Positions 1,868-38,491 of a DNA stretch of 40,868 nucleotides are shown in pieces. Source of the stretch: Candidatus Segetimicrobium genomatis (GTDB lineage Bacteria; Sysuimicrobiota; Sysuimicrobiia; Sysuimicrobiales; Kaftiobacteriaceae). How positions within the stretch are numbered: position 1 is the stretch's first letter; each line of letters starts with the position of its first letter. The stretch lies in assembly GCA_005888595.1 (NCBI GenBank), contig VBAL01000111.1:9450-50317 (forward strand), read 5' to 3'. The translations under genes were made by a program, and so were the position numbers. The notes beneath the pieces are model-generated. The model was not told where the DNA came from. It worked only from the letters and a program-made list of their open reading frames with translations, and made no database searches.

Positions 1868-4084
1868 ATGGTGGACACGGCCGGCGAGCAGGCGGGCGCC
1901 GGGCTTCAGATCGTCGCGGGGCTATTGGCCCTCGGTATGGTCGCCGGGCTGGCCGCCCGATTGATCCCCGCAATCATCGCAGTGCCGGCCGTCGCCGGGG
2001 CTGCGCTCTTACTAGCTGCGCGAGCCATCATGCGGTCGCGTGCAGCGGCCGCTTCGTCCACCGAGGCACACTCCATCCGCAAAGCCGTTGCCGCCAGTGG
2101 CACGCTCCTTCGCACCCTGGACGAGACCCGGGTGCTGCGGGCCGCGGCGGAAGCCGGCGCGCGATTGAGTGCGCACGCCGGCGGCAGCCTAGTCTATCTG
2201 ATCGGGGATGGAGGCAGTGCCGCTCTCAAGAGCACATGGGGGTTGGACGGACCGATGCAGGAACAGGCAGAACTCCCGCCGCTGGACGCCGACGTGGCTG
2301 AGGCCGCCTCGACGCGGAAGACGTTCATCATTTCCCTGCACGGGGCCGGCGGCGCATACCGGTCAGCCTGCATGCTCCCACTGCAAGGCAAATCTGCGCT
2401 GCTGGGGGTGCTCGTGCTGCTGAGCCAGAAAACCCCCTCCGCCTTCCGGCCGGAGATCCCGATGCTGGAATACTTCGCGGCGCAGACGGCGTTGGCCATC
2501 GACAACGCGCGACTGTATGGGCAGGTGCAGGACATGTTTATCTCTTCGATCACCGCCCTGGCAGCGGCGGTCGACGCTAAAGATGCCTACACCCACGGGC
2601 ACTCCGAAGACATCGCCGACCTGGCTACGATGATCGCCCGCGAACTCCAGCTGTCGCTGCAGGAAATCGAGAAAGTGCGGCTGGCCGGCCTCCTACACGA
2701 CGTGGGCAAGATTGGCGTTCCCGATGCCATCTTGCGCAAACCAGGAAAACTCGATCCGGCAGAGAGGGCCGTCATGATGACCCATGTGACACTGGGCGCC
2801 TCCATCATCGATAAGCCCGGTCCGCTCCGAGACCTCGTGGCCATCGTGCGCCACCACCATGAACACTTTGATGGCCACGGCTATCCCGACGGCCTCCGCG
2901 GCAGCGAAATTCCCATCGGATCTGCGATCCTGGCGGTGGCGGATGCCTTCGACGAGATGACCAGCCACCGTGCCTACCATACCGCCCGACCTGTCGCTGC
3001 AGCCTTGGTGGAACTGGAGCACCATGCAGGAACGCAGTTCCACCCGCAGGTCGTGGACGCGCTGGCCCGCATCGTGGCCAGGGAACGCGAAACTGGGTCG
3101 AACTGGATCCGGGCCTTGGAAACTCGGATCATCAATCCACCCACGATCCCGGCATCGGGTGACCGGCCCCCGGCGGAGTCAGGAGACGCCGCCCTGGTCT
3201 GGCAGCTGAGCCAGCAGTTACGCGATGCCGACGACCTGCCGCAGTTGTTAACTTCCCTCACCGCTACGACTGCGAAGCTGCTTCCGTGTGCGCGCTGCGC
3301 GGTACTGCTGCTGGATGAACGGGGCGCGACCCTGTCGGTCGAAGCAGCGACGTCGGAGGATCCTGCGCCAGGAACGGTGTTTCCTCGGAGCCGGTCGCCA
3401 CTGTGGCAAGCGGTGGAGCAACACGCGGCTCAACGGACAGGCGAGCACTCCGAGGTATACATGCCGCTGATGTCGGGAGGGCAGCCTGTGGGCGTCCTGC
3501 AGGCCGGAGAGGTCGACCGAGATGCAGAGCGGTTGCTGGCCGTCATCGCTGAAACCGCAGCGCCGGTGGTGCAGGCCGCTCTCTTGCGGGATCGGGCTGA
3601 GCGATCGGCCGCCGCCGACGAACTCACGGGTCTTCTCAATCGCCGCGCGCTCGTGGCCCGTCTCTACCAAGAGGCGGCGCGGCACAAGCGATACGGGACC
3701 CGCTTTACGCTGGTCCTGGCGGATATCATCGGCCTGGCACCGTTCAATGCGCAGCACGGCTACGACGCCGGGGACGATCTCGTCCGCCGCACGGCGGAGC
3801 TCCTGGCGGCTAACATCCGCCAGGTCGATTTTCCGGCTCGGCTGCAGGGCGGAACGCTGGCCTTGTTTATGCCTGAACTTGATCGCACGGAGGCGGAGCG
3901 TGCCGTTCGCCGTCTACAGGCCATGGTAAACGAGCGAGAGGTCACAATCCTGGGACGGTTCATGCGCGCCCAACCACTGCGCTGGGCGATCGCCGGCTGC
4001 CCGCAGGACGGGACCGATGCCGACGCTCTCCTGGCGGTCGCAGAGCGCCGTCTTCGCGCAGAACCCGAACCATCTCCCCACTGA
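1868..4084 (+). CDS. Membrane-anchored GAF / HD-GYP / GAF / degenerate GGDEF c-di-GMP signalling protein
   Basis: Two N-terminal hydrophobic helices; GAF end (ALAIDNARLY); HD-GYP motifs HDVGK and HHEHFDGHGYPDGL; C-terminal DELTGLLNRR and NAQHGYDAGD, but QGGTL in place of GGDEF. ATG 1868 has a GGAGG RBS. Confidence 0.9.
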   Translation: MVDTAGEQAGAGLQIVAGLLALGMVAGLAARLIPAIIAVPAVAGAALLLAARAIMRSRAAAASSTEAHSIRKAVAASGTLLRTLDETRVLRAAAEAGARLSAHAGGSLVYLIGDGGSAALKSTWGLDGPMQEQAELPPLDADVAEAASTRKTFIISLHGAGGAYRSACMLPLQGKSALLGVLVLLSQKTPSAFRPEIPMLEYFAAQTALAIDNARLYGQVQDMFISSITALAAAVDAKDAYTHGHSEDIADLATMIARELQLSLQEIEKVRLAGLLHDVGKIGVPDAILRKPGKLDPAERAVMMTHVTLGASIIDKPGPLRDLVAIVRHHHEHFDGHGYPDGLRGSEIPIGSAILAVADAFDEMTSHRAYHTARPVAAALVELEHHAGTQFHPQVVDALARIVARERETGSNWIRALETRIINPPTIPASGDRPPAESGDAALVWQLSQQLRDADDLPQLLTSLTATTAKLLPCARCAVLLLDERGATLSVEAATSEDPAPGTVFPRSRSPLWQAVEQHAAQRTGEHSEVYMPLMSGGQPVGVLQAGEVDRDAERLLAVIAETAAPVVQAALLRDRAERSAAADELTGLLNRRALVARLYQEAARHKRYGTRFTLVLADIIGLAPFNAQHGYDAGDDLVRRTAELLAANIRQVDFPARLQGGTLALFMPELDRTEAERAVRRLQAMVNEREVTILGRFMRAQPLRWAIAGCPQDGTDADALLAVAERRLRAEPEPSPH

Positions 4085-5281: not shown

Positions 5282-5400
5282 TAGTGAATAGTGAATCGTG
5301 AATAGTGAATAGGTTAGGACCTATCCGTTCCCCCGGCCGGCCTCGGATCCTCGGCAGCCGTTAGCTATTCACTATTCACCATTCACCATTCACTATTCAC
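5282..5400. repeat. Inverted heptamer arrays (TAGTGAA)n ... (CTATTCA)n
   Basis: tagtgaa tagtgaa tcgtgaa tagtgaa ... ctattca ctattca ccattca ccattca ctattca. The rimI stop lies in the right arm. Confidence 0.9.
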
Positions 5401-5914
5401 TGTTCTGTTCGAGTTCCGCCCGCATCTTGGCCAGTTTCTGTTGATACTCCCGTTCCTGCAAATTTCCACTCCACATTACAATGGCGTCCTCGCGGTTGTC
5501 GCTGTAGTACCCTTTCCGGACGCCGATCTCTCGGAAGCCGTATTTCTTGTACAGCGTCTGCGCCGTGGCGTTCGACTGGCGCACTTCCAGAGTCATCCAG
5601 CGTGCGCCGCGTCCAAGGGCGGCGTCGATCAACCCCACCAACAGCCGTTCACCGACGTGCTGCCCGCGAAATGCGGGGTCCACCGCGATCGTGGTGATGT
5701 GCGCTTCATCGAGGATCACCCACATCCCGGCATAGCCCACGATCTCCGCGTCCGCCCGGGCGACGATGTATGCCGCCAGCCGGTTCTCGGTGAGTTCGTG
5801 CGTATAGGCGTCCCGTGGCCACGGCGTGCGGAACGACTCCCGCTCGATCTCCACCACGCGGGGAACGTCTTCCAACCGCATCGCTTCCAATGACACCCGT
5901 GTAATCTGCTTCAT
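5393..5914 (-). CDS. rimI: Ribosomal-protein-alanine N-acetyltransferase RimI
   Basis: EAHITTIAV, TLEVRQSN and RKGYYSDNREDAIVM motifs; tsaB-rimI-tsaD synteny. Confidence 0.95.
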   Translation of the reverse strand: MKQITRVSLEAMRLEDVPRVVEIERESFRTPWPRDAYTHELTENRLAAYIVARADAEIVGYAGMWVILDEAHITTIAVDPAFRGQHVGERLLVGLIDAALGRGARWMTLEVRQSNATAQTLYKKYGFREIGVRKGYYSDNREDAIVMWSGNLQEREYQQKLAKMRAELEQNSE

Positions 5915-7239: not shown

Positions 7240-8557
7240 GAAGGCGCAGACCCTCCACGCCGACGACCGTGACGCGATCGCCCTGCCGGATCGTCGCCTT
7301 ATCTTCTGCCTCAGCCGTCCACATCTCGCCCTGCGCGTAGACTATCCCCTCAGGATTCAAGTCAGTCCGGGCCACGCCGCTTGCGCCCGCCAAACCTTCC
7401 CGGCCGCTGCGGACCTTCGCGCGCTGCGCGCGCACGCCGGCGCCCACCGCGAACAGGAAGAACGCGCCCGTGAGCAGGGCCGTGAACGCGGCCAGCTTCA
7501 GCGACACCTGCAGGAACGGCGATTGCCGTTCGGTCAGCAGCAGCGCGCCAAAGAAAAACGCCAGGATGCCGCCGATGGTGAGCACCCCATGCCCCGGCAC
7601 CTTGAGATCAGCGATGAAAAACAGGACCGACAATGCGATCAGGGCCAGCCCCGCCACGTTGACCTGCAGGATGGCAAACGAAGCCAGCGCTAGAATCAAC
7701 GCGATCGCGCCGACCACCCCCGGCAGGATGGCGCCGGGATTGCCGAGCTCGAAGATAATCCCGTAGATGGCGATGGTCATCAAGATCAGCCCGACGTTGG
7801 GGTCACTGAGCAGGTCGAGCAAGCGCTCGCCGGGATCCATCGCGATGTTGCGCAGGACCGCGTGGCCGGTCGCCAGGCGCACCGGACCGGTTTCGGTCTC
7901 TACTTCACGGCCGTCAATCTTTCTGAGCAGATCCGGCACGTCCACCGCCACGAGATCGACGACGTTCAGCCTCACCGCCTCTTCTTCGTCGATGGACACG
8001 CTCTCGCGCACCGCCTTCTCGGCCCAGTCCGCATTCCGGCTGCGCCGGCGCGCGATGGCCCGAATGTTGGCCACGGCGTCGTTCGTGACCTTCTCCATCA
8101 TCGTCTGGTCCTGCTGGCCGCCCTGGCCCACGGACACAGGATGGGCCGCGCCCAGGTGCGTCGCCGGCGCCATCGCCGCAACGTGGGCCGCGTAGGTGAC
8201 AAAGACGCCTGCCGACGCCGCTCGCGCCCCTTTGGGGCTGATGTAGACGATGACCGGCACCCGGGCATTGAGCATGGCCTTCGTAATGTCATCCATGGAC
8301 TTGAGCAGCCCCCCGGGGGTGTCCAGCTCGATCAGCAACGCGGCGGCGTTCGACTCCTCGGCCTCGCGGATCGCGCGCTGGATGAAGCGGGCACTACTGG
8401 GCGCAATGATGCCCTCGACGCGAATACGAAACACCGTCGCCGCCTCGCCCGCTGCGGCGGCTGCGTCTCGGGCCAGCAGCGGGGCGGCACAGGCGACCAC
8501 CAGTGCGGCAAGGACCGCCGCGCCTCTCCACCACGGATTGTTACTGAATCTGGTCAT
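7217..8557 (-). CDS. nfeD: Long-form NfeD membrane-bound serine protease (ClpP-class)
   Basis: Signal peptide; LDTPGG, AASAG and GAAHPV motifs; transmembrane region; C-terminal OB-fold (GEMWTA). Confidence 0.92.
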   Translation of the reverse strand: MTRFSNNPWWRGAAVLAALVVACAAPLLARDAAAAAGEAATVFRIRVEGIIAPSSARFIQRAIREAEESNAAALLIELDTPGGLLKSMDDITKAMLNARVPVIVYISPKGARAASAGVFVTYAAHVAAMAPATHLGAAHPVSVGQGGQQDQTMMEKVTNDAVANIRAIARRRSRNADWAEKAVRESVSIDEEEAVRLNVVDLVAVDVPDLLRKIDGREVETETGPVRLATGHAVLRNIAMDPGERLLDLLSDPNVGLILMTIAIYGIIFELGNPGAILPGVVGAIALILALASFAILQVNVAGLALIALSVLFFIADLKVPGHGVLTIGGILAFFFGALLLTERQSPFLQVSLKLAAFTALLTGAFFLFAVGAGVRAQRAKVRSGREGLAGASGVARTDLNPEGIVYAQGEMWTAEAEDKATIRQGDRVTVVGVEGLRLRVRPLAR

Positions 8558-10319: not shown

Positions 10320-10403
10320 GATTCGAACTGCGTGATTCGTGATTCGACAAAACCACACTCTGCATTGCGAATCACGAATCACGAACCACGAGTCACGAAT
10401 CAC
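10320..10403. repeat. Inverted heptamer arrays (GTGATTC)n ... (GAATCAC)n
   Basis: gtgattc gtgattc ... gaatcac gaatcac gaaccac gagtcac gaatcac; contains the stop of the C26 peptidase gene. Confidence 0.88.
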
Positions 10404-11863: not shown

Positions 11864-12868
11864 TTACCCTTCCTGAAAGGCGGCGGCATGCGCGAACACG
11901 GCCGGCTGCCCGCCCGTGTGCCAGAACACGACGTTCTGGTCGGGTGTGAACCGCTCCTGTGCAATCAACCCCATAAGGCCTGCCATCGCCTTCCCAGTGT
12001 ACACAGGGTCAAGCAGCACCCCCTCGGTCCGCGCGACGATGCGGATCGCATCCAGGCATTCAGGGGTCGGTACCCCATATCGTTCCCCAACATAGTCGTC
12101 GTAGACAATGAGATCGTCTGGATGCGGCCGCCAGCGTAGATCCACGAGCTCGACCAATTCACCCACGATACCCAACACGCGGGTCGTCACCACCTCACGC
12201 CGGGGGCCGGCGCTGATCCCAATCACCTGAACGCCGCTGTCGGTGAGTTTCGTCCCGGTGTACAGGCCGGACTGCGTTCCTCCGGAGGTACTGGCATGGA
12301 CCACCGCGTCCACACGGACGCCGCTGGCATTGGCCTGGGAGAGCAGTTCCAGCCACGCCCCCAGATAGCCGGCCGCGCCGGTGGCGTTGCTGCCGCCGCG
12401 CGGGATCACAAAGGGCTTGCGTCCATCCCGGCGCAACTGGCGCGCCAGGTCCTCGACGACGCCCGCCACGATGTAGTCATCATCGGTCTGGATGATGCGC
12501 ACCTCGGCACCAAAAATGCGATCCAAGAGCAGGTTCCCCTGCGCCTGATCGGGCGGCTCCCCGTTCAGCACCACGATGGGCTCGAAGCCCAACCGCCGTG
12601 CGGCCGCGGCGGTCATGCGGGCATGGTTGGATTGAACCGCCCCCACCGTAATGACCACATCGCATCCCTGCTGGCGGGCCTGCCCCAGCAGGAACTCCAA
12701 CTTGCGAGCCTTGTTGCCACCCAGGGCCAAACCGGTCAGATCGTCGCGCTTGATCCAGATGTGTGGACCGTGGAGGTAGTCGCTGAGCCTTGGCGCCTCT
12801 TCCAGTGGCGTGGGGAGATGAGCGAGCTTGATACGGGGAAGATTTCCGAGCTGCACTTTAACCCCCAA
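11864..12868 (-). CDS. D-cysteine desulfhydrase family PLP enzyme
   Basis: KRDDLTGLALGGNKARKL and QSNH motifs. DPVYTGK and HTGG (not YEGK/HLGG) argue against a true ACC deaminase. Confidence 0.9.
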   Translation of the reverse strand: MGVKVQLGNLPRIKLAHLPTPLEEAPRLSDYLHGPHIWIKRDDLTGLALGGNKARKLEFLLGQARQQGCDVVITVGAVQSNHARMTAAAARRLGFEPIVVLNGEPPDQAQGNLLLDRIFGAEVRIIQTDDDYIVAGVVEDLARQLRRDGRKPFVIPRGGSNATGAAGYLGAWLELLSQANASGVRVDAVVHASTSGGTQSGLYTGTKLTDSGVQVIGISAGPRREVVTTRVLGIVGELVELVDLRWRPHPDDLIVYDDYVGERYGVPTPECLDAIRIVARTEGVLLDPVYTGKAMAGLMGLIAQERFTPDQNVVFWHTGGQPAVFAHAAAFQEG

Positions 12869-12871
12869 ACT

Positions 12872-13009
12872 TCGTGAATAGTGAATAGTGATTAGTGAAT
12901 AGTACCACCGTCGTATGCGTCTCTTCGGTATCGGACAGTCTCGTGCGTTCCATTGAGTCCGCCGTTCCTATTCACTATTCACTATTCACTATTCACCATT
13001 CACTATTTA
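12872..13009. repeat. Inverted heptamer arrays (TAGTGAA)n ... (CTATTCA)n
   Basis: tcgtgaa tagtgaa tagtgat tagtgaa ... ctattca x4, ccattca, ctattta; contains the pxpBC stop. Confidence 0.9.
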
Positions 13010-14643
13010 CTGGACAGATCGCGCAGCGTCTCCTCCCAAGCGCGCAAAGCGTCAACGGCCTGCTCGATGGTCGCCGGCACGAACCGGATCCGTGTCCCGG
13101 GCCTGGCCTGCGCGACGATCCGCAGGTCAGCCGAGGCCACGACGCCGGGTTTCGGGTATCCGCCTGTCGTGGGCCCGTCAGGCATGATCACGATCGGCTG
13201 CCCGGCCTCCGGCACTTGCACCGCCCCGGGAAGCAACCCATCGGACAACATCTCGACCCGCCTGGCCGGAACGGCGGGCCCATTCAGGCGGACGCCTGCG
13301 CGGTCGCTCTGCACGCTAATGGAAAACGCCGCCTGCCAGAATCGCTCGCGGGATGCACTATCAAACCACGCGTCCTGCGGCCCGGGGAGGACGCGAACAA
13401 CTGCCTCCTCCACGGGGATCTCGAGCGAAATCGAGCTCGACGCCGCGAGGCGACTCGGTCCTTCTCCCCGCCCCAACGCGTCTCCTGCCCGCAGCCGTCT
13501 GCCGCCCGCCCCACCCAATCCGCCCGGCACGTAGGTCGCGGTGCTCCCGAGCACTGCCGCGACGGCGATCCCACCAGCGACCCCAACATATGCCCACATC
13601 CCCCGGCGGGGCGCTCCAAAGTAGAGCATCTGGCCGGTGCGCATCGCGATGGGGGTCCACGGCTGCAACTCGCGGCCGTCCAGCGACGCAGAGAAGTCGG
13701 CGCCGGTCACGGCAATCGTCACGTCATCCAGGGCGCGCAGCACCGGACCAGGAGCCGTGCACTCTACTGCGGCCGCAGATGGGCGATTTCCCACCAGAAG
13801 ATTCGCGAGCTGAAGGGCGGCGGGGTCCATCGCGCCGGCCGACGGCAGCCCCAGGCTGCGGGATCCTGTTCGGCCCAGATCCTGCACAGTCGTGTACAGT
13901 CCCGCATCGCGCACTTCCATGGCCGGGCGCCCCGCAGGCTCTACCAGGCCTGGCGATCCGAGCGGGATCTCGGGAAACACAGCCGACGTGACCGGCACGA
14001 ACCGAACATGGTCTCCGGGCCGGAGCAGAATGGGATCGGGATGCCGCGGATCGTAGATGATCCGCGGCGTGCGGCCGATGAGTCTCCACCCGCCGGGGGT
14101 GGACAGCGGATAGACGCCGGTGAGCGCGTCGGCAATCCCTACCGATCCCGCCGGGACGCGGGTGCGCGGCACCGACAGGCGCGGCCTGCGCAGGGAGGCC
14201 GCCACAATACCCAGATACGGAAATCCGGGAGCAAATCCCAGCATCAGCACCTGGTAGTCCTGGCGGCTATGAAGCTCGATGGCTTCGCGGGTGGTCAGAC
14301 CGCTCATCTTGGCGACGTCGGCGAGATCCGGGCCGGCGTCTCCACCATAGACGACCGGAAGCTCGATCAGCCGGCCGGCGCCGTCTTGGTCAGGAAGAAG
14401 GTTCTGGAGCAACTGCAGGGCGGTGCCGGCCAGACGGTTACGGTCCGCTGTCAAAGGATCGATGATCAGCAGCAGGGACCGCAACGTCGGCACGACCTCG
14501 ATTACGCCGGGCAGGTCGCGCAGCCGGCGACTCAACGCCCGGACGCAACCACTGATCTCTGTAGAGAGTTCGTCCGCGAACTCGACGACCAGTCCGCGGT
14601 CTCCGAACGGGAGGACCGAGGCCGTCCTGGACCCGCGTGTCAT
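13003..14643 (-). CDS. pxpB: Fused 5-oxoprolinase subunits PxpB-PxpC
   Basis: N-half GFAPGFPYL and TPGGWRLIGRT (PxpB); C-half TVQDLGR, SDRAGVRL and TTGGYPK (PxpC). Confidence 0.92.
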   Translation of the reverse strand: MTRGSRTASVLPFGDRGLVVEFADELSTEISGCVRALSRRLRDLPGVIEVVPTLRSLLLIIDPLTADRNRLAGTALQLLQNLLPDQDGAGRLIELPVVYGGDAGPDLADVAKMSGLTTREAIELHSRQDYQVLMLGFAPGFPYLGIVAASLRRPRLSVPRTRVPAGSVGIADALTGVYPLSTPGGWRLIGRTPRIIYDPRHPDPILLRPGDHVRFVPVTSAVFPEIPLGSPGLVEPAGRPAMEVRDAGLYTTVQDLGRTGSRSLGLPSAGAMDPAALQLANLLVGNRPSAAAVECTAPGPVLRALDDVTIAVTGADFSASLDGRELQPWTPIAMRTGQMLYFGAPRRGMWAYVGVAGGIAVAAVLGSTATYVPGGLGGAGGRRLRAGDALGRGEGPSRLAASSSISLEIPVEEAVVRVLPGPQDAWFDSASRERFWQAAFSISVQSDRAGVRLNGPAVPARRVEMLSDGLLPGAVQVPEAGQPIVIMPDGPTTGGYPKPGVVASADLRIVAQARPGTRIRFVPATIEQAVDALRAWEETLRDLSSK

Positions 14644-19249: not shown

Positions 19250-20122
19250 GTGCGCGCTGCGGTGCCCAGGACTCGCGGGGAGGTCCCCTGGCTGCGCCTC
19301 GCATCCTACGCGGTCTTGGTCGCCGCGGCCCTGTTCTATCTCCTTCCCATCTATGTCCTGGTGATCACGGGGATGAAGAGTTTCGCCGAGGTGAACCTCT
19401 ACCGGATGTGGGACCTGCCGTCGAGATTTTCGCTGGACAGCTTCGTGAAGGCCTGGCTGGGGAGCGCGACTCAGGGGTTCCGGGGCCTGAGCAACAACTT
19501 CTGGAACAGCGTGCGCCTGGCGGTACCCGCGACCCTCCTGTCGGCCGCCCTGGGATCGATGAACGGGTACGTCCTGTCAAAGTGGAGATTCCGCGGCTCA
19601 GACAGCCTGTTTGCACTGCTCCTCTTCGGGATGTTCATCCCTTACCAGAGCATCTTGATCCCGCTCGTCCAGGTGCTGAGCCGCATCGGGCTCTATGGCT
19701 CAATTCCCGGCCTGATATTTGTCCACGTCGTGTACGGGATTCCGATCACGACGCTGATCTTCCGAAACTACTACGCCACCGTCCCCGGCGAACTCGTCGA
19801 GGCGGGGAAGATCGACGGCGCGGGCATCCTCGGCATCTACCGGTCGATCATGTTCCCGATCTCGATGCCGGCCTTCGCGGTAGTGATGATCTGGCAGTTC
19901 ACCTCGATCTGGAACGATTTCTTGTTCGGGGTCATCGTTACCCCGCGACCCGCGGTACAGCCGATCACGGTGGCCCTCAACAACCTCGCGGGTAGTTACA
20001 TCGTGGAATGGAACGTGCAGATGGCGGGCGCCCTGCTCGCCGCGCTGCCGACCATGCTGCTGTATATCGTGCTGGGCCGCTACTTCATGCGGGGGCTGCT
20101 GGCGGGATCCCTGAAAGCATAA
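19250..20122 (+). CDS. Sugar ABC transporter permease 2
   Basis: [12 protein letters not shown] and WNDFL motifs; TM helices. Confidence 0.95.
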
Positions 20123-20203
20123 CTGTGTCTACCTAGTCTTCCCAATCTACCTAGTCTTCCCGGTCTACCTAGTCTTCCTGGTCTACCTAGTCTTCCTGGT
20201 CTC
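20121..20203 (+). repeat. Left arm of a 9-mer GTCT(A/T)C-NNN array
   Basis: aactgt gtctaccta gtcttccca atctaccta gtcttcccg gtctaccta gtcttcctg gtctaccta gtcttcctg gtctcc. Confidence 0.92.
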
Positions 20204-20511
20204 CTTGCTTGATATCCATGAACCTCGATGAACTCACTGATCGTGCGCAGGCCGCGCGGATGCGCGACATCGTTCCCACCGATCGCGCATCAGCCGACGA
20301 ACACGAGGACTCGAGCGACATGCGGGCGGCTCGCGCGTAGCGCCTCGTCCGAGACCGTCGCTGCGTGCGAGGACACACTGAACCCTTGCGCCGAAGGCGC
20401 ACCACCGTACCGCGGGCCCCACCAGCCTAGCGATCCCCCGCGCACGAATCGACAGGGTCGTTAGGGCGCCGTGGTACGGCACGAATGCTACGTCAGATGG
20501 CCCGGTACGAG

Positions 20512-20562
20512 CCGTACCACCGCCTGAAGTTGGGAGGGGAACTACTTTAGGGGGTGGTACGG
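20512..20562. promoter_or_regulatory. 19-bp inverted repeat, putative operator upstream of the island genes
   Basis: ccgtaccaccgcctgaagt-13 nt-actttagggggtggtacgg (17/19 complementary). Confidence 0.55.
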
Positions 20563-20612
20563 GGCGCCTCATACGAATAGATGGAGAGACGTACGCCGCG
20601 ACTGCAGGACTA

Positions 20613-21332
20613 TTGGATCAGGCGTGGAAAATAGTTGTCGGCCACTCAACCGTTGTCGCTACCGAGGTGACGAAGATCAAATCCAAGCTTCTTCCCCGGT
20701 TAGCCGTCCTACTGGCTGTTGCGGTGGGGCTTACGGCGGTCGCAGTAACCCGCTCCATCGGACGCTTTCGGGAGCGCCCCCCCGTCACGACCCCACCCGC
20801 AACGGAGCCTCGGCAACCTCGCTCATCGAGTCAGCCTAATCCGTCTGCAGCCGCAGATCAGGCACAGCCAGCCTATACGGGAGTGCTGGGAGATTTCCTG
20901 GTGACTGCGAAGGTAGGCCAGGTTGCAGATTGGCCACCATGTCCCGAGCCGCGTAGACCGGCTCAGAATTATAAGGCCTCGGAGGTCTATTCCCCCGTCT
21001 TCGGCGATCTTGAAGTATACGAGTGTGCTGACGGCAAGATCATCGGTCTTTCGGTTTATGGGGACCCGAGCATTGGAAAACGCTACTTCGTTGGGCCAGC
21101 GAAAGTCAATTACTTCGCGCCATTAGATCGACTCGTGCTGTTGAAAGTAGCGGGTCGTCCCGCAATTGCACAACTGCCAGCACCGGGTGATCCAGAGGGC
21201 CTCCGTCTTGCGGTCATCCAACGGGTTCCCAGCAACAATCAGCCCGGCATTATGGTCTGGATTGACAACACCAGCAAAAGTGTGGCAGAAGCCGCAGCGC
21301 TGGCGGCAGAAATTATGGGGGTGCGACCATGA
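20613..21332 (+). CDS. Hypothetical membrane-anchored protein (TM helix, Pro-rich linker, small extracytoplasmic domain); alternative start GTG 20667
   Basis: 239-aa ORF with hydrophobic LAVLLAVAVGLTAVAV; ATGA overlap with the next ORF; lower GC than the flanks. Confidence 0.7.
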   Translation: MDQAWKIVVGHSTVVATEVTKIKSKLLPRLAVLLAVAVGLTAVAVTRSIGRFRERPPVTTPPATEPRQPRSSSQPNPSAAADQAQPAYTGVLGDFLVTAKVGQVADWPPCPEPRRPAQNYKASEVYSPVFGDLEVYECADGKIIGLSVYGDPSIGKRYFVGPAKVNYFAPLDRLVLLKVAGRPAIAQLPAPGDPEGLRLAVIQRVPSNNQPGIMVWIDNTSKSVAEAAALAAEIMGVRP

Positions 21333-23023
21333 AAAGATTCTTGGTACTGATGACCGCAGTGTGCAGCGGGTTATCGCTCCCTCTGTTCGATCGTCCCGAG
21401 ATAGTGCAAGCTCAGACACCGCGTACGGACACAATCTACTTCATGGGCGCCACGCGAGGTAAGGACTACAATAATACGGGCGTTCTTTCATGGTGTGTCA
21501 GTCGGAGCTGGCATGAGAGCTATCCCAATGGTCCTGCGGATGCACTCGATGAGGTTGCACAGCAACAGGCGGTCCCAACACCCCCTCCCACTGATGACCA
21601 GTGGCCGGCGATTTGTAATAGTGATCCGACAGCGATCGACGGTTCCGGAAAGGTCGATCTTACAACCTACGGCGTTACGGGTCCGCTAGATTGCAGTTCG
21701 CCCTGCATTTCTTTAACCGTGAGAGGCAGATCTTTTGAGTACGGCGACGGCTGCGATTACATCGAGGCCGACCTTTACGATTTCGTCACTATGGACGACG
21801 GGCATAAAGTCGGTGAAAAGAAAGGGAAGCAGCGCATGATACATGCACTTGCACCTAATAGTACTAATGTCCCTTATGACCTGCCTTCCATACAAGTCAC
21901 ATCAACCGGATTGTACGCTAGCAATGAGATAGGGACACTACAAAATGACACCAATTGTAAACCCAATACTAACCCGCCTGGCTTTACACCAGGTGGTTAT
22001 CACGTCCACCATGACTTCATGCCACCGACGGGATCACAGTCTTGTTCGTGGAACCAAAACACTCCGGCGAACTTTCCTAGGCATATTACGGATCGGCAAA
22101 AACAGAATCCTTCCCACTGGGTGCATTTTGTGTCCCACAAACCTGGAGTGTCATGTTTTGCGGATGGGCCGCCAAAGTTGGCCGATAACTTGTTGGCATC
22201 GGACGGTGTGTTGGATGGAGACGGGAATGGTGGTGGGACCAGGGCGTTGGCAACAGGAGCACAATCTTCGCTCACGAGCCCGCAGACGTGCATTACAGGG
22301 ACGTCCTGGTGTGGAACAATCAGTGTGACTCCGCCTGTGGTGCAGGCGGCGTTTTCCAACTATTTGGGATTGTCGCCAACTGATTACTTGAGAGCGCAGC
22401 AGAAGCGTATTCCCCCCCGGGGGAGCACAACACCATACTATTGGTACGGTCCAGACAACGGAGGGTTCTATTTCTACGTGTTTTGGTGGATGACGTATCC
22501 GGACGGTAGTGGCTATTGGGACTGTGGCATGGGAGTACCAGGAGCAGAGAGGTATTGGGCGGGGTTTTCGAGTTGGACTGGTATTTATACTTGTCAGAAC
22601 GGGTTCATAAGCCTCGGCGGCGGTGGGGGGCCGGTGACCGCCATTGAAAATGAGTGGAGTCAGTTCCGGGGCTTGAATGGCATAAATCCGACAGCGCCGC
22701 CAACACAGCAAGACGCGAATACGTGGGCTCAGACTCAGATTGACAGTGGACACTGGGCGGATGTAGTGAAACCGGCTCTAGATGCGGTGATTCGTGCGGG
22801 GACGGGCAACATGGACATGGCGACGCTGGGGATTACGGGGGATCCTCCGTTTGATGGGGACCTCGGCCAGGTTGGGCTGGCGGGTGTAATGAACAGGATG
22901 AATACTGTAGCGTCGCGGGTTATGGACCTTCCGTTGTTTGATCCGACCCGAGCCGATATGAATCGTGATTGGATAGGTTCAACTCGCCCAAGGTGGAGTT
23001 TGACGGGAAAAGCTTTGAGGTAG
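21329..23023 (+). CDS. Secreted Cys-rich hypothetical protein with possible divergent M23 (LasA-like) metallopeptidase motifs
   Basis: 564-aa ORF; signal peptide MKRFLVLMTAV...QAQ; motifs WHESYPNGPADALD, MIHAL and GGYHVHH; lower GC. Confidence 0.7.
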   Translation: MKRFLVLMTAVCSGLSLPLFDRPEIVQAQTPRTDTIYFMGATRGKDYNNTGVLSWCVSRSWHESYPNGPADALDEVAQQQAVPTPPPTDDQWPAICNSDPTAIDGSGKVDLTTYGVTGPLDCSSPCISLTVRGRSFEYGDGCDYIEADLYDFVTMDDGHKVGEKKGKQRMIHALAPNSTNVPYDLPSIQVTSTGLYASNEIGTLQNDTNCKPNTNPPGFTPGGYHVHHDFMPPTGSQSCSWNQNTPANFPRHITDRQKQNPSHWVHFVSHKPGVSCFADGPPKLADNLLASDGVLDGDGNGGGTRALATGAQSSLTSPQTCITGTSWCGTISVTPPVVQAAFSNYLGLSPTDYLRAQQKRIPPRGSTTPYYWYGPDNGGFYFYVFWWMTYPDGSGYWDCGMGVPGAERYWAGFSSWTGIYTCQNGFISLGGGGGPVTAIENEWSQFRGLNGINPTAPPTQQDANTWAQTQIDSGHWADVVKPALDAVIRAGTGNMDMATLGITGDPPFDGDLGQVGLAGVMNRMNTVASRVMDLPLFDPTRADMNRDWIGSTRPRWSLTGKALR

Positions 23024-23241
23024 TTCTCAATCATAGAAGCTAGCCATGCGAACTATTGTTGAGCCGAGATTTCCCTGTGGGTCCGGCTGCTGCCTTCTCG
23101 CTAGCACAGGTGCTTTGACGGAATTCCCTTGGACTCCTTTCCTGATTCTAGATCCTGCTGCAATGAGAGATCGGAGTCGCCCCGCGCCAGTCAGCGCCGA
23201 TGTTCCCTCTTCAGGTCTTTGCTTTTCCGAACACCGACGCC

Positions 23242-23839
23242 TCAAGGTGCTGGCGGGATGATTTTGCCACGAGGACAGCCTCGCTGTAGGTCGCCGTGAC
23301 GTAACCTCACGTCGTCATCTGGCCAAAGGCGTTGGCCGATAGCGGTGGACCTTGTCCCACCGAAGGGCCAAAAACTCGTTGCCCTCCGGGTGAGTCCGGC
23401 GAGTATAGAATCCGCCACGGACCTGCCCGCCAAGTACAACACTCCCGCCCGCTTCCAAAGCGTCAGGACCTCGGCAGGGTCTTCGATGTCGACTGACTTA
23501 AAGACGGCCTGAGCAGCGGACCGTTCCACAAGAAGGACCTCGCCGCCCTTGGAGCTGGCTTGCCAGCGGCCGTGCACCGGCGCCTCCTCATCGCGGGCCG
23601 GATGCCCGATGAAGTGAAGGCCAGCGTGTTCGAGCGCCTGCAAGAACTCAATGAACCGGAGCGGGGGCCCCGCCACCGGCTCCATGCGCAGCCCCATCGC
23701 TCTTACCGCCGGTCGGGAGATCCGGACCCCAGTCCTTGACCGCGCGTGCCGTTGACACCCGTATCTCCGACGGAGGAACTTTCACGAATAGTTCCGCGAG
23801 CAGGCGCTGGATCTCGCTGGGAAGGCGCAACGCCGCCAT
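23242..23839 (-). pseudogene. Possible frameshifted hypothetical gene (two overlapping ORFs)
   Basis: ORFs 23648-23839 and 23242-23697 join by a 1-nt shift near 23715 (WGPDL|RPAVRAMGLRMEP). No family recognised. Confidence 0.3.
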
Positions 23840-23880
23840 CTTGCTAAACAGCAGGCAGGTAATTGCGCGCCCGTTCGCAG

Positions 23881-23918
23881 GGAGACTAGGAAGACTAGAT
23901 GGACGAGGTAGACAGTTC
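23881..23918 (-). repeat. Right (inverted) arm of a 9-mer GTCTAC array
   Basis: ggagactag gaagactag atggacgag gtagacagtt, the reverse complement of the array type at 20121-20203. Confidence 0.75.
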
Positions 23919-23919
23919 T

Positions 23920-25053
23920 TCAGGCGGAGCGCGTTCCCATCAGGATCTCGAACACCAGATGGTCCAATCGCTCATAGGCGAAGGTCCGGCCGGGACCGGT
24001 CGCGGGACGTTCGTCGGACCCCGGCGGCGCATCCCACCGCCTGATCTCCGCCAGCAGCTGCTGAACTTCCGCATCCTGGTTGAACTGGTGCACCTTGTCG
24101 GCCAGGATCTCATAAGCCCGGATGCAGCCCTCCACGAATCCCCAGATCCCCCGTTCATCAGTGGTCCGGTACGGATGCGCGTCGAATGTCCGTGGTCCGG
24201 GCCACCGTTCCTCTTCCAGCAACTTCACGACAAAAAATGCATCCTTGAGATTGGCACCGCCAAACCGCAAATCCTGGTCGAAGCGCAGCGGGCGCTGGGC
24301 GTTGAGGTGGATGCCATCCAGCTTGCCGGCGTACAGGGCGTGGGCGATCTCATGGGCGGGGTTGAGCCCGGCCATGGCGGCATGAGCGAATTCCAGGACC
24401 ACCCCCACGTGCTCAGGGTGTTCCAGCGTGGCGATGAATGCCAGGGCGTGGCCGGCTGTCGAGATGTAGAGGTCTCCCCGCGGCTCGTTGGGTTTGGGTT
24501 CTACCGACAGACGCATCGGGTAGCGCTGACTGGTGATGTACGCATCGAGCTCGTTGAACCCATCCCGGAGCCGCTTTAAAGCATCGACCGGGGATCGGCT
24601 CGCATCGACCTCTGCGCCGTCGCGGCCTCCCCAGATGTTGAACAATGGTGCGTCCAGCAGGTGTCCAACATCAATCGCCGCCTTATAGCGCGCGAGCGCC
24701 ATGCGCCGGACGCGGGCTTCGTTGGACACCATGCCGCCGTCTTTGAAGACCGGCTCTGTGAACATCGACGACCCGCAGGCATCGCAGACGATCCCCGTAT
24801 CTGTCATGCGCCGCCGCGCCTCGGCGATCAGGCGGTCCCGCTCGACGGTTGAACTTCCGGGCGGGAGGAGGTCCTCCGCATGCAGCTCGAAGGCAGCCGC
24901 GCCGTGGGCGGCCAACCCGCTGATGGCCTCCAGCGGATCGAGCGCGGAGCGCGTCGCCGCGCCGAACGGATCGGCCCCCCGGTTCATGACGGTCCACAAA
25001 CCGAAGCTGTAGACTCGCGTTGCCGTTTCGCGTTTCGGCACCTTGGTACTCAA
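23920..25053 (-). CDS. Xylose isomerase family protein (divergent; substrate uncertain)
   Basis: YSFGLWTV, DPFG, VFKDGG, WGGRDG, EPKPNEPRG and FDQDLRFG motifs; TTG start at 25053 after AGGGG. Confidence 0.9.
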   Translation of the reverse strand: MSTKVPKRETATRVYSFGLWTVMNRGADPFGAATRSALDPLEAISGLAAHGAAAFELHAEDLLPPGSSTVERDRLIAEARRRMTDTGIVCDACGSSMFTEPVFKDGGMVSNEARVRRMALARYKAAIDVGHLLDAPLFNIWGGRDGAEVDASRSPVDALKRLRDGFNELDAYITSQRYPMRLSVEPKPNEPRGDLYISTAGHALAFIATLEHPEHVGVVLEFAHAAMAGLNPAHEIAHALYAGKLDGIHLNAQRPLRFDQDLRFGGANLKDAFFVVKLLEEERWPGPRTFDAHPYRTTDERGIWGFVEGCIRAYEILADKVHQFNQDAEVQQLLAEIRRWDAPPGSDERPATGPGRTFAYERLDHLVFEILMGTRSA

Positions 25054-25063
25054 CGATTCGCCC

Positions 25064-26311
25064 CTACAAGCACATTTTGTTGTCGCCGCAGGCCTTCTGC
25101 AAGGCGCGCTGCGCCGCCCCGACATCCTTATTGGATACGAAGGCATGCACGATGTCGTTGAACGCCACGGTGAACCCTGGCGGTGCCGCAGAGCCGTGCA
25201 CCTCGCTTGGAACCACCACATTTTTGGCGAAGTCCTTCGCCGCAGACTGCATATAGGTGTCGAGTTTCATCGGATCGCAATCGGTGCGCGCGCAGAGCGC
25301 CCCTTTCAGTTGGTTCAAGGCCTCTTGCCCCTCTTTTGAGCCGTTCGGCAGGCTGAATGCGGCGCTGATGACCAGGAAGGCACCAGACGTGCCGAACGCG
25401 GGCACATACCCGTAGTCCATCCCGGGTGTCCATCCCTTACCAATGAAATAGCCGGAGGCCCAGTCTCCCATCACGGTCATCGCCGCCTTGCCATCGATCA
25501 GCATCTGCGCCGCGGAGTCCCAGGTCCCACTCGCATGGTCGCTGTTCACGTACTCCAGGACCTTCGCGTATGTCTCCAGTGCCCGTTTCACAGTATCGCC
25601 GGTCCATGAGGTCTTACCGGTCCACAGTCCGCGATATCCGATAGGCCCGAGCGCGCCGAGGAGCACATCCTCCAACAGGTGGGCGGCCTCCCACTTGTTC
25701 TGGTCACCCAGCGCCAGCGGGGTGATCCCCTTGGCCCGCAGCGTATTGGCTACCTTAAAGAACTCGTCCCAGCTGGTTGGCGCCGCCAGCTTGTTATCGT
25801 CAAAGATTTTCTTGTTGTACCAGAGGACGTTCCCGCGGTGCACGCTGACCGGCACGGAGTACTGATCGCCTTGATACGTGACAATGTTCACAAGGTTCCT
25901 GGGGAAGACGGCGAGCCACCCCTCACTCTCGAACAACTGCGTGATCGGTTCCATGTGGCCGGTGACGACCCATGCGCTCGTAAGTTCCTCGCCGCCGTGC
26001 GCCTGGAAACTGTCCGGCGGATGACCCCGCTGCATGCGGGCTTTCAGGATCGCTACGGCATCTTCAGGGGTACCGCCGGCGATTGCCGCGTTGACAATCT
26101 CCACATCAGGGTACCGCTGCCTGAAAATCTCAAACACCGCATGAAGACCGTCGGCCTCACGGCCCCAGGTCCACCAGCTGAAGATCTCCAGCTTCCCGCC
26201 CATGACCGACCCGGCCTGCAACCCCGCGCGGAATGGAGATATCATCAGCGCCGTCACGATGACGAGCACGGTCCAGAACCACACGGCAGTGCGGCTCATT
26301 CTGTGCATCAT
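25064..26311 (-). CDS. Second sugar ABC substrate-binding protein, paralogue of 16954-18210
   Basis: Shares GGKLEIFSWW, PPDSFQ, GDW and CARTDC with the first binding protein. Confidence 0.9.
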   Translation of the reverse strand: MMHRMSRTAVWFWTVLVIVTALMISPFRAGLQAGSVMGGKLEIFSWWTWGREADGLHAVFEIFRQRYPDVEIVNAAIAGGTPEDAVAILKARMQRGHPPDSFQAHGGEELTSAWVVTGHMEPITQLFESEGWLAVFPRNLVNIVTYQGDQYSVPVSVHRGNVLWYNKKIFDDNKLAAPTSWDEFFKVANTLRAKGITPLALGDQNKWEAAHLLEDVLLGALGPIGYRGLWTGKTSWTGDTVKRALETYAKVLEYVNSDHASGTWDSAAQMLIDGKAAMTVMGDWASGYFIGKGWTPGMDYGYVPAFGTSGAFLVISAAFSLPNGSKEGQEALNQLKGALCARTDCDPMKLDTYMQSAAKDFAKNVVVPSEVHGSAAPPGFTVAFNDIVHAFVSNKDVGAAQRALQKACGDNKMCL

Positions 26312-26475: not shown

Positions 26476-27678
26476 ATGGCCGTGATGCCCGATCCGACGC
26501 GCTGGACGGCCGCGGTGGACCTGTTCACGCGGGTGTTCGACGCCCACACCACCCTCGTCGCCGGCGCGCCCGGCCGCGTAAACCTCATCGGCGAGCACAC
26601 GGACTACAACGACGGCCTGGTGTTGCCGGCCGCGATCGACCGTCACGTGTTCATCGCCGCCCGGCGAAACGACTCAGGTCGCGTGAGATTGGCGGCGAGC
26701 GCATTCGAGGACCGGGTGGAGTTCCCCACCGACGATCCCGGCCGGCCGGCTCTGCCGGTCTGGGCCCGGTATCCACAAGGCGTCGCCGTGAAGCTACGGG
26801 CCCGCGGCATCAGCATACACGGATTCGACGCGGCCATCGCCGCCGATCTGCCGGTCGGCTCAGGGCTCAGCTCGTCCGCCGCGCTGGAGGTGGCCTCGGC
26901 TCTGGTGATGGAAGCAATCAGCGACCACGCGCTTCCTCCGAGAGAACGCGCCCTGCTGTGCCGCGCCGCGGAGGTGGAGTTCGTCGGTGTGCCCTCTGGG
27001 ATTATGGACCAGTTCGCCTCCACATTGTGCCGGCGTGGCCATGCTTTGTTCCTCGACTGCCGCTCACTGGAAACACACCACATTCCATTAGGAGCGACGC
27101 TCGCCATCGCGGTCTGCGACACCGGGATGGCGCGCGTCCTGGCGGGATCGGCGTACGCGCAGCGCAGGCAGGAGTGCGCCGATGCCGTCACCGCGCTGCG
27201 GAAGGCAGGATTGAAGATTGCGTCGCTGCGGGATCTGACGCTAGATGACGTCCCACGTGTGGAGCGCCTGCCGGAACCGCTGCGGAGGCGCGCCAGGCAT
27301 GTCCTCACCGAGGATGCGCGGGTCGTGGAAACCGCGACACTTTTGGAAAGTGGGCAGCCCGGTGGGCTGCGGGACGTGTTCTCTGCATCTCACCGCAGCC
27401 TGCGCGACGACTACGAGGTAAGTTCTCGCGAGTTGGACGCCATGGCGGAGGCGGCCCTCGACGCGCCCGGCTGCGTGGCCGCCCGGATGACCGGCGCGGG
27501 ATTCGGCGGCGCAGTCGTCGCCCTGGTGCAACGCGCGGCCGGGGACGCGTTTCTCGCCGCGGCGGCGGAGGGTTACCGGAGACGCACGGGACGTGAAGGC
27601 CGATTGTTTCTCACAGAGGCGGCGGAGGGAGCGAAACTACTTGAAGGGCGGGACTCGGGACTGGGGACTGGGGACTAG
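26476..27678 (+). CDS. galK: Galactokinase
   Basis: APGRVNLIGEHTDYN, GSGLSSSAA, GIMDQ and ARMTGAGFGG motifs. Confidence 0.96.
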   Translation: MAVMPDPTRWTAAVDLFTRVFDAHTTLVAGAPGRVNLIGEHTDYNDGLVLPAAIDRHVFIAARRNDSGRVRLAASAFEDRVEFPTDDPGRPALPVWARYPQGVAVKLRARGISIHGFDAAIAADLPVGSGLSSSAALEVASALVMEAISDHALPPRERALLCRAAEVEFVGVPSGIMDQFASTLCRRGHALFLDCRSLETHHIPLGATLAIAVCDTGMARVLAGSAYAQRRQECADAVTALRKAGLKIASLRDLTLDDVPRVERLPEPLRRRARHVLTEDARVVETATLLESGQPGGLRDVFSASHRSLRDDYEVSSRELDAMAEAALDAPGCVAARMTGAGFGGAVVALVQRAAGDAFLAAAAEGYRRRTGREGRLFLTEAAEGAKLLEGRDSGLGTGD

Positions 27679-27756
27679 AATTGTGAGGATCTTACCCGAG
27701 GTGATTGCTCGCACCAATCCCTAGTCCCAAGTCCCTAGTCCCAAGTCCCTAATCCC
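27650..27756. repeat. Inverted heptamer arrays (GGGACTN)n ... (AGTCCCW)n
   Basis: gggactc gggactg gggactg gggacta ... aatccct agtccca agtccct agtccca agtccct aatccc. The galK and nnr stops each lie in one arm. Confidence 0.9.
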
Positions 27757-29358: not shown

Positions 29359-29504
29359 TAACTGCGTCTACAAAGTCTACCATGTCTCCTAGGTCTACAA
29401 GGTCTACTAGCATAAAGACATAAGTCGCAGTGCCTACGCGCGCGCAGAAAGGCGGGTAGACTTTGAAGACCTGGTAGACCTGGTAGACCTTGTAGACGCA
29501 GTTA
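29359..29504. repeat. Inverted 9-mer arrays (GTCTAC-NNN)n ... (GTAGAC-NNN)n with perfect 15-bp outer inverted repeat
   Basis: taactgcgtctacaa ... ttgtagacgcagtta termini; about 5 units per arm; ~45-bp spacer. Confidence 0.92.
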
Positions 29505-29509
29505 TGCAG

Positions 29510-29548
29510 TTATCCCCATCAAGCACACTGTCCACACGGTGTGAACGA
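29510..29548. promoter_or_regulatory. Degenerate DnaA-box-like array upstream of the ncRNA promoter
   Basis: TTATCCCCA, TCAAGCACA and CTGTCCACA in 9-bp tandem, then an inverted TGTGAACGA. Confidence 0.35.
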
Positions 29549-30797: not shown

Positions 30798-30958
30798 AAC
30801 TGCGTCTACAAAGTCTACTATGTCTACTACGTCTACTACGTCTACTGCGTCTACTAGGTCTACTAGGTCTACCAGGTCTTCAAGAGTCGGCTCGTAGACA
30901 TAGTAGACTCAGAAGACGTTGTAGACTTTGTAGACATCACTTTGGATCAAGTAGACGC
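30798..30958. repeat. Inverted 9-mer arrays (GTCTAC-NNN)n ... (GTAGAC-NNN)n
   Basis: aactgc gtctacaaa gtctactat gtctactac ... gtagacata gtagactca gaagacgtt gtagacttt ...; about 9 units in the left arm. Confidence 0.93.
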
Positions 30959-32637: not shown

Positions 32638-32736
32638 CTACGTCTTCTTGGTCTACTGAGTCTCCCTGGTCTACTTGGTCTCCGTAACTCTTGCGGACTA
32701 AGTAGACTAAGAAGACCAAGTAGACTAAGGAGACGT
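32636..32736. repeat. Inverted 9-mer arrays (GTCT-family)
   Basis: aactac gtcttcttg gtctactga gtctccctg gtctacttg gtctcc ... gtagactaa gaagaccaa gtagactaa ggagac; contains the stop of the first GDPD gene. Confidence 0.9.
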
Positions 32737-37315: not shown

Positions 37316-37399
37316 CACCAGGGCACCAGGGAACCAGGGGAACCATGCCTGCATGTGACTGTGGCACGCGGTACCTTGGTTCCCTGGTCCCTTGGTCCC
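37316..37399. repeat. Inverted octamer arrays (MACCAGGG)n ... (CCYTGGTY)n
   Basis: caccaggg caccaggg aaccagggg aacc ... ccttggtt ccctggtc ccttggtc. Confidence 0.8.
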
Positions 37400-38394: not shown

Positions 38395-38491
38395 AGTGAT
38401 TAGTGATTCGTGATTAGTGATTCGTAAATTCGCGAAATCAAGTAACCGACGCGCCTCCCAAGATCTTGCGAATCACGAATCACTAATCACG
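38395..38491. repeat. Inverted heptamer arrays (GTGATTM)n ... (GAATCAC)n
   Basis: agtgatt agtgatt cgtgatt agtgatt ... gaatcac gaatcac taatcac; contains the ATPase stop. Confidence 0.88.

Follow-up and report, generated by a model that had tools for sequence, protein, structure and literature searches.

A GTCTAC mirror element of Candidatus Segetimicrobium genomatis is split by decayed conjugative-element DNA at a recurrent insertion hotspot

The insertion of mobile DNA into extragenic palindromes is already described for repetitive extragenic palindromic (REP) sequences (PMC1525189). That work reports that insertion sequences of five families (IS1397, ISKpn1, IS621, ISRm22 and others) target REPs and bacterial interspersed mosaic elements (BIMEs) at the axis of the palindrome, with direct repeats, and that REPs are also found at other recombination junctions (PMC1525189). 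Here we examine a different intergenic hairpin repeat in Candidatus Segetimicrobium genomatis, in a stretch of 40,868 nucleotides (assembly GCA_005888595.1, contig VBAL01000111.1, positions 9,450 to 50,317; hereafter the window). The repeat is a mirror element, in which an array of tandem 7-9-nt units is followed, after a short spacer, by its inverted counterpart, and in the window its two arms flank a 3.6-kb island between an ABC-transporter permease gene and a convergent sugar-isomerase-like gene. An earlier note, made from the sequence alone, had proposed that such elements act as integron-like landing sites for foreign cassettes. We found that the island is a decayed mobile-element insertion at a recurrent hotspot and not the product of an integron-like capture system.

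When compared with the REP/BIME insertions of PMC1525189, the locus shares a multicopy intergenic hairpin target, insertion at or near the palindrome centre, and a short direct repeat. It differs in that the insert is decayed conjugative-element DNA without an insertion sequence or transposase, in that the arms are tandem 9-nt sub-repeats of 35-80 nt whereas REPs measure 21-65 nt, and in that no genome-wide link between insertions and mirror elements was seen (1 of 22 indels). Remnants of integrative conjugative or mobilisable elements are resembled in the conjugation-gene remnant, the direct repeats at the ends, the empty sites, and the varied elements that sister lineages hold at one and the same site; however, no integrase is present here, the site is the loop of a hairpin repeat and not a tRNA or protein gene, and one end abuts a truncated internal gene. 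Integron cassettes are mostly single promoterless open reading frames (ORFs) in one orientation, each ending in attC, and exchange at the attC core typifies integrons. The locus is similar to them in having folded imperfect inverted repeats that bound variable DNA and, in the genome G002, repeat-bounded small ORFs in series, but it has no integron integrase (IntI) and no attI, its multi-gene cargo lies on both strands and is partly pseudogenised, and a 9-nt duplication stands in place of attC core exchange. As with miniature inverted-repeat transposable elements (MITEs) and a full-length transposon, the short elements have inverted ends in common with a long one; here, in contrast, the arms remain without cargo, there is no transposase, and several unrelated families of arm units exist.

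We found the intergenic site in an empty as well as in several filled states. Loci for comparison came from an isomerase-based metagenome scan (39 loci, of which the closest 18 were examined), from a family-level set of 11 loci, and from the congener G001 (L029 = G001:C51) and the genome G002 (L030 = G002:C268). Two alleles (L077 and L069) are empty and read isomerase stop, arm, spacer of 45-47 nt, arm, permease stop. The A type, found in the window and on two independent metagenome contigs (L064 and L076), carries the island of the window. The B types (L029, L065, L066, L067, L068) retain only the isomerase-side arm next to other content, and the C type (L030, L070, L078) retains only the permease-side arm, which is not visible in L078, together with the small ORF150. 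An older state was seen in the five family-level loci that hold both genes (L011, L016, L017, L019, L020), where the convergent genes stand 4-100 nt apart without arrays; five others of the 11 end before any permease, and L010 belongs to G001. The metagenome locus L071 is similar to this array-free arrangement.

Soil-run evidence was taken from Logan contigs, not reads, of four runs. These contigs span both junctions of the filled allele, and others skip the island. One joins 20241 to 23879 with 15 letters between that match L077, another joins 20204 to 23883 with 35 other letters between, which represents a third spacer, and a further joint leads from 20123 to 23928. Because L064 and L076 carry the island and soil contigs bridge both of its junctions, the island is not an assembly artefact. 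The earlier note had named as support an allele in relatives with adjacent arms, or with different cargo between the same arms, and both were found: the arms are adjacent in L077, L069 and two of the soil-contig joints, and other DNA lies at the same arms in sister lineages. Neither of the outcomes that it named as refuting its reading, independent arrays that pre-date the island or island boundaries far from the arms, was encountered.

The boundaries of the insert were placed by alignment to the empty allele L077. The left arm of the window aligns to that of L077, which has four fewer units, and the whole arm plus 37 nt of the original spacer are retained (20205-20242, two mismatches, up to CTGAT), followed by GTGCGCAGG and then by divergence. 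On the right side homology resumes at GTTCGCAGG and continues straight into the right arm. Because homology is lost and regained at these two repeat copies, the insert proper is 20252-23872 (3621 bp; guanine-plus-cytosine (GC) fraction 0.576), the segment that the contig joints skip. The 9-nt copies on the left (20243-20251) and right (23873-23881), both on the + strand, are 8/9 identical and lie exactly at the two junctions; their pattern occurs five times on both strands of the window (2 x 40.9 kb), two of these being the copies themselves. The empty allele reads GTACGAGG once, at the spacer/right-arm junction, and the insertion point is the 3' loop/stem junction of the hairpin (DNA fold z-score of the intact element, -7.9). 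The 9-nt repeat may be an att core or a target duplication. Direct repeats at both ends together with an empty site in relatives are what is expected of an integrative conjugative or mobilisable element. Signs of an insertion sequence were looked for at the insert ends, where no terminal inverted pair was found and where by eye only a GC-rich GCGCG is shared.

The arms themselves were further characterized with Tandem Repeats Finder (TRF) and a repeat-family search. The left arm (20127-20204) comprises about 8.5 nine-nt units (GTCTACCTA / GTCTTCCyr) and begins 5 nt past the permease stop; by TRF it covers 20127-20202 with a period of 18 (two 9-nt half units), 4.2 copies, 93% matches and a score of 124. 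The right arm (23881-23913) reads GGAGACTAG GAAGACTAG ATGGACGAG GTAGAC, carries one unit fewer than the right arms of L076 and L077, and ends 6 nt short of the isomerase stop (TRF 23879-23898, score 33). Between them, 20172-20208 and 23877-23913 form an inverted repeat of 37 nt that is 84% complementary at a separation of 3668 nt. It was noted that CTAGTCTTCC, allowing up to one mismatch, occurs six times in the window, all within the two arms (expected 1.21; a count of six was reached in 0/100 shuffles). The left arm has no inverted partner within the following 160 nt, its partner lying only by the isomerase stop, and the remaining three GTCTAC elements of the window have spacers of 44, 21 and 12 nt (TRF coordinates). 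On these points the earlier description stands, and the two arms are halves of a single split element, which L077 and L069 show intact. The genes on either side are the inner-membrane permease (19250-20122, + strand; Pfam BPD_transp_1, E 1.5e-15), which is 82-99% identical in amino acids in relatives, and the isomerase-like gene with a xylose-isomerase-like TIM barrel (23920-25221, - strand; E 3.8e-20); they form the left and right conserved flanks and converge around the element.

We then assessed the origin of the insert from its two ends. At the right end, 23245-23875 on the - strand holds the truncated and frameshifted C-terminus of a TraG/VirD4-like type IV secretion coupling protein, covering approximately residues 864-1047 of about 1054. 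The - strand frames over 23245-23881 match P0001, which carries PF10412, PF02534 and PF12696, at residues 937-1015 (80% identity) and 864-927 (72%), with the frameshift between the two frames and a protein length of about 1050 amino acids; eight of the nine hits in the search for this protein have these three families. At the left end, 20388-20568 (+ strand) is an intergenic remnant that aligns in the same orientation to about 180 nt just past the coupling-protein stop in the family-level relative G003 (contig C223, locus L111, approximately 3087-3269; alignment score 70, where 50 shuffles gave at most 28; blastn E 2e-6). In G003 the intact coupling-protein homolog sits in a conjugative cluster with VirB4/TraC-like, TrbL/VirB6, SSB and RadC genes. 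The coupling-protein tail and the region downstream of it, which make up the two ends of the insert, are thus parts of a conjugative element in colinear order; of the transfer genes a fragment of this one is present. A cluster of GTGGTACGG / CCGTACCAC hairpins was found both in the window (20468-20562) and downstream of the coupling-protein gene in L111 (3150-3330), and may be a transfer-related or regulatory site. No Rfam match was detected on 19900-24100 at E up to 1, and the DNA on the left side of the intergenic remnant showed no SSB homology. In G000, the genome of the window, each debris segment occurs once, and none is linked to the other copies of the cargo gene o239.

Nested between these two remnants is a module of two ORFs (20613-23023). 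The first, o239 (20613-21332, + strand), encodes an orphan membrane-anchored protein of a multicopy lineage-specific family, and the second, o564 (21329-23023, + strand), whose start overlaps the o239 stop, encodes an orphan secreted Cys/Trp-rich protein in the lowest-GC part of the island. In 400-nt bins over 20801-23200 the GC fraction is 0.49-0.57, against a window mean of 0.64; the average is 0.55 for the module and 0.62-0.63 for the flanking genes, with 0.66 and 0.615 for the two stretches of debris. The lower GC reported in the earlier note therefore holds for the module and not for the debris, and the flanking genes do not stand at 0.67; since low GC is confined to the two large ORFs, the contrast was somewhat overstated. 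The orphan ORFs and gene debris that it reported are both present, the debris being the coupling-protein tail and the ORFs being o239 and o564, for which no usable family was found in PHROGs, Pfam, NCBIfam or ESM Atlas. A Zot-like PHROG match (E 0.009) in this search covered only the membrane segment and was discarded, and the ESM Atlas model of the o239 family has a predicted local distance difference test (pLDDT) value of 0.28.

The two cargo genes were also examined outside the site. We found six o239 matches on five contigs of G000 and homologs in 7 of 40 relatives, whereas o564 homologs (51-55% amino-acid identity) occur in 3 of 40, in each case with an o239 copy alongside (G001:C51; G002:C267 and C189; G009:C22). 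A search for loci related to o564 among the genome contigs gave no match. The o239 family, whose orphan products are membrane-bound or secreted, is restricted to a few genera of this bacterial family and is frequently encountered on short contigs, often followed by o564. The syntenic o239 of G001 is 56% identical to the window copy and a copy elsewhere in G001 is 76% identical, so the two lineages hold different o239 paralogs at the site. Thirteen other loci carry copies of the cargo genes (G000:C123, C205, C162 and C244; G001:C82 and C128; G002:C267, C189 and C40; G009:C14 and C22; G003:C118 and C197); TRF detected a GTCTAC-type array in the vicinity of a single one, G000:C244, where it lies about 1.1 kb upstream, and arms enclose none of the thirteen. 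At three of the cargo-gene loci the Pfam-annotated neighbours are mostly metabolic and transport genes, with a single protein in G009:C22 that has only a helix-turn-helix domain.

Sister lineages were found to hold other DNA at the same site. The fill of G001 measures 4.8 kb and contains o239 and o564 homologs (the latter broken), a kelch-repeat protein, and two 3' remnants of a large serine recombinase that are 86% identical to P0010 and P0011 (PF07508, PF13408). One of them breaks off close to the right arm. The other runs to its natural stop, some 45 nt away from that of the permease, and the left arm and spacer are absent there. Such 3' remnants were seen in the G001-type allele only and not in the window insert. 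The L066 fill has a 450-amino-acid frame (a putative ATPase) with recombinase debris, and the G002 type has small ORFs including ORF150 next to the left arm only. Because the site was independently occupied or remodelled in these lineages, it has the character of an integration hotspot. A search of 13 genomes gave no close serine recombinase that is intact. No tRNA genes were detected in the window or in L029, and tRNA-like strings suspected in G001 proved to be the tail of the serine-recombinase gene.

Several further features of these alleles were recorded. In L029, direct and approximately 80% identical recombinase 3' ends (7960-8040 and 12458-12535) lie 4.4 kb apart and bracket the island, and to judge from their arrangement this duplication suggests tandem or successive integrations of recombinase-bearing elements. 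In L030 a block made up of some 60 nt, the GTCTAC array and the final 50 nt of the permease gene occurs twice (1076-1237 and 2012-2115; 93% identical); the blocks bracket a 195-amino-acid ORF and the contig ends in the second copy, as though a circle sharing this sequence had entered through a single crossover. Between 19822 and about 23400 L076 matches the window exactly; it lacks 235 nt of the coupling-protein debris and differs in a 450-nt patch with 46 mismatches running from the right arm to inside the isomerase gene, a pattern that shows a recombination tract bounded by the right arm. L064 is near-identical to the window except in a 150-nt bin with 51 mismatches at about 25200-25350, near the isomerase start, which is a further short recombination patch.

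To place the split element in its family, the mirror elements of G000 were surveyed genome-wide. G000 is a metagenome-assembled genome of 2.94 Mb in 325 contigs with 87.8% completeness, and TRF detected 1501 merged arrays in it with a period of 7-9 or twice that. Under strict criteria 93 GTCTAC arrays were counted, against 0 in a shuffled genome; 46 of them form 23 tight +/- pairs, and for most of the other 47 a degenerate partner lies no more than about 60 nt away. Taking as well defined an element with both arms at a TRF score of at least 40, we obtained 152 elements with a median length of 103 nt and a median spacer of 27 nt (5-95%: 13-66; maximum 116), and the 3.6-kb spacer is therefore far beyond the family range. 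They lie a median of 14-19 nt from adjacent ORFs on a crude greedy gene map and adjoin genes in every orientation (++ 45, -- 37, +- 24, -+ 21, contig edge 6, within a called ORF 19), which is similar to the background of adjacent gene pairs. On folding they form long hairpins (z-scores -7.9 and -10.5); they are multicopy, intergenic and hairpin-folding in the manner of REP/BIME-like palindromic repeats. Several unrelated unit families exist (TGAATAG, CGAATCA, GGGACT, GTCTACnnn, ACCAGGGA and GCAGTCGC), and a terminal ACTGC...GCAGT motif is, by reading, common to many GTCTAC elements. The other mirror elements of the window lie at 5282-5405, 10331-10403, 12874-13011, 27649-27756, 29366-29513, 30799-30937, 32649-32734, 37317-37399 and 38395-38491.

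All three genomes of the genus are rich in the GTCTAC pattern (175-254 matches each). Its distribution in the family is patchy, and 30 of the 41 genomes searched gave no match. A literature search returned no description of inverted arrays of 7-9-nt tandem units, which is weak evidence that none exists, and the class is apparently undescribed so far. Of the two PF01797 (Y1 transposase) genes in G000, looked at for an association of the kind seen with REP-associated tyrosine transposases, neither has mirror arrays within 2.5 kb. At orthologous sites (window 27649-27756 and 29366-29513 compared with L029, L067, L069 and L031) close lineages carry different mirror elements: one site has GGGATy units and an unrelated spacer in place of GGGACT units, and the next has three different GTCTAC elements. 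The immediate flanks ACTGC ... GCAGTT are conserved around the differing elements, and on this comparison the differences look like element turnover or replacement.

A search for other long-spacer elements had been recommended in the earlier note. Two were found, C279 with 543 nt and C252 with 548 nt, each enclosing a 23S_rRNA_IVP four-helix-bundle gene, but both are conserved in congeners and are not recent insertions. Three of the four PF05635 (23S rRNA intervening-sequence) genes lie between or beside mirror arms (G000:C279:2429-3037, G000:C252:4124-4728, G000:C261:2638-3327); conservation is 94% for the C279 element in G001 and partial for the C252 element in G002. ORFs occur in the loops of rRNA intervening sequences, of which PF05635 genes between arms are reminiscent. 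Four candidates for a second split or filled element were examined and rejected: a C40 pair that, judged from first residues only, encloses three putative housekeeping genes, a C174 pair with the wrong geometry, a C105 insert of 1.5 kb that lies about 40 nt outside an intact element, and a C82 event at a solo array only.

The comparisons show that a pre-existing GTCTAC mirror element (arm, loop of about 45 nt, arm) between the convergent permease and isomerase genes was split by an insertion at the loop/right-arm junction. The insert is what remains of a conjugative element, consisting at its ends of the last approximately 190 coupling-protein codons and the intergenic region that follows them. 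As to how it arose, we consider the following route to be the probable one. An integrative conjugative or mobilisable element would have integrated via its own recombinase, with the 9-nt repeat as a shared core or target duplication, and later deletions would have removed the integrase and nearly all transfer genes. Several observations weigh against this route. The insert ORFs and debris frames have no integrase or transposase match in Pfam, PHROGs or NCBIfam, in agreement with what the earlier note had reported, and neither an intact coupling protein of this kind nor a donor element carrying it turned up in the genus (G000, G001 and G002). The coupling-protein homology starts immediately inside the right repeat, so the route needs a later deletion that ended exactly at the att or target copy. 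The empty site reads GTACGAGG and not the repeat itself, and a target duplication is for that reason only inferred. Large serine recombinases exchange at a 2-nt core, from which no 9-nt repeat is expected, and they are the only recombinase debris at the site. The empty-allele lineages are also approximately 10-13% diverged from the window in the isomerase, and the isomerase tree leaves the filled or empty state as ancestral in the genus unsettled.

Against integration and subsequent reduction, three other histories of the insert were weighed. Breakage and capture, in which the hairpin or cruciform was cut at its loop/stem junction and a random conjugative fragment was end-joined, with the 9-nt repeat arising from fill-in of the staggered break, would account for a right end in mid-gene (coupling-protein residue about 864), as for an arbitrary fragment, and for an insertion point where the loop and stem of a strongly folding hairpin meet. 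A gene for Ku was detected (181 bits), and between close lineages the spacers at this site, and whole elements at others, are wholly different, which suggests frequent loop turnover. There is, however, no direct evidence of breakage; with just 1 of 22 large indels in a mirror element the loops are not generally fragile capture sites, and the recombinase debris at the same site in sister lineages indicates site-specific integration; we think this history unlikely. The reverse polarity, with the island or a larger ancestor already present in the genus ancestor and the empty alleles produced by precise excision between the 9-nt repeats, draws on the isomerase tree, in which the filled B types diverge first and the empty alleles fall among the filled C types, and such excision would leave a single copy, as in L077. 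That tree rests on 546 nt from a region with a clear recombination patch and has several open forks, while three empty alleles with unrelated spacers are hard to derive from one filled ancestor and the A and B types hold different o239 paralogs; we give this polarity a rather low probability. A broader proposal, that the loops are preferred points of breakage and recombination through which foreign DNA is captured by structure and repeatedly exchanged, independently of a recombinase, would have its visible case in the at least three fills, arm-edge breakpoints and unrelated spacers of this site, with the four-helix-bundle genes as older captures. We hold this proposal to be quite doubtful.

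Two further readings concern the arms and the class as a whole. The view that the arms are single arrays with no relation to each other, or that they are terminal inverted repeats belonging to the island, gains something from the genuine solo arms in G000 (about 10 of the 47 unpaired arrays among the 93 strict GTCTAC arrays, judged from their flanks). A cargo-carrying MITE-like element would leave a site without arms, whereas both arms stand in L077 and L069 without the island, and the left arm with 37 nt of spacer, as well as the right arm, is colinear with the empty alleles. This reading is extremely improbable and is ruled out by the empty alleles, the alignments and the contig joints. The earlier proposal that mirror elements as a class are landing platforms, analogous to attC and attI of integrons, could point to the at least three different fills of this one element across the genus, to the two long-spacer elements at C279 and C252, and to the cassette-like duplication of array plus flank in G002. 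For comparison 749 kb of G001 were taken and 493 kb aligned, a sample of about 1/6 of the genome (high-scoring segment pairs below 250 nt or 80% identity dropped; gaps above 15 kb and overlaps above 50 nt ignored). This yielded 22 indels of at least 500 nt, three of them overlapping on one contig pair, and only the present locus lies within a mirror element, though approximately 31 well-defined elements are in or beside the aligned blocks. The best match to the integron integrase TIGR02249 in G000 (87.8% complete) reaches 79.2 bits against a cut-off of 265. The 152 well-defined elements keep spacers of at most 116 nt, the four-helix-bundle elements are conserved in congeners, and the C40 pair encloses putative housekeeping genes. 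The insert is no cassette either, being composed of two + strand ORFs, a - strand pseudogene and non-coding conjugative debris between 9-nt-repeat ends. On present evidence, with about 1/6 of the genome sampled, we reject a class-wide capture function, which is very unlikely.

Within the available data there is no integron-like system here, and on the comparisons made the hairpin repeat would be a tolerated, possibly recognised, target, in the way that REPs serve some insertion sequences, and not an active capture machine. What the locus offers is a natural example of one intergenic hairpin repeat that is encountered empty, filled and differently filled. Taken together, these states place the insertion point at the loop/stem junction and reveal repeated hits on the site. 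The finding carries the known association of mobile DNA with extragenic palindromes over to another class of repeat, in an uncultured soil lineage. If the structure-driven proposal were true, the element would be a recombinase-independent gene-capture site in that lineage.

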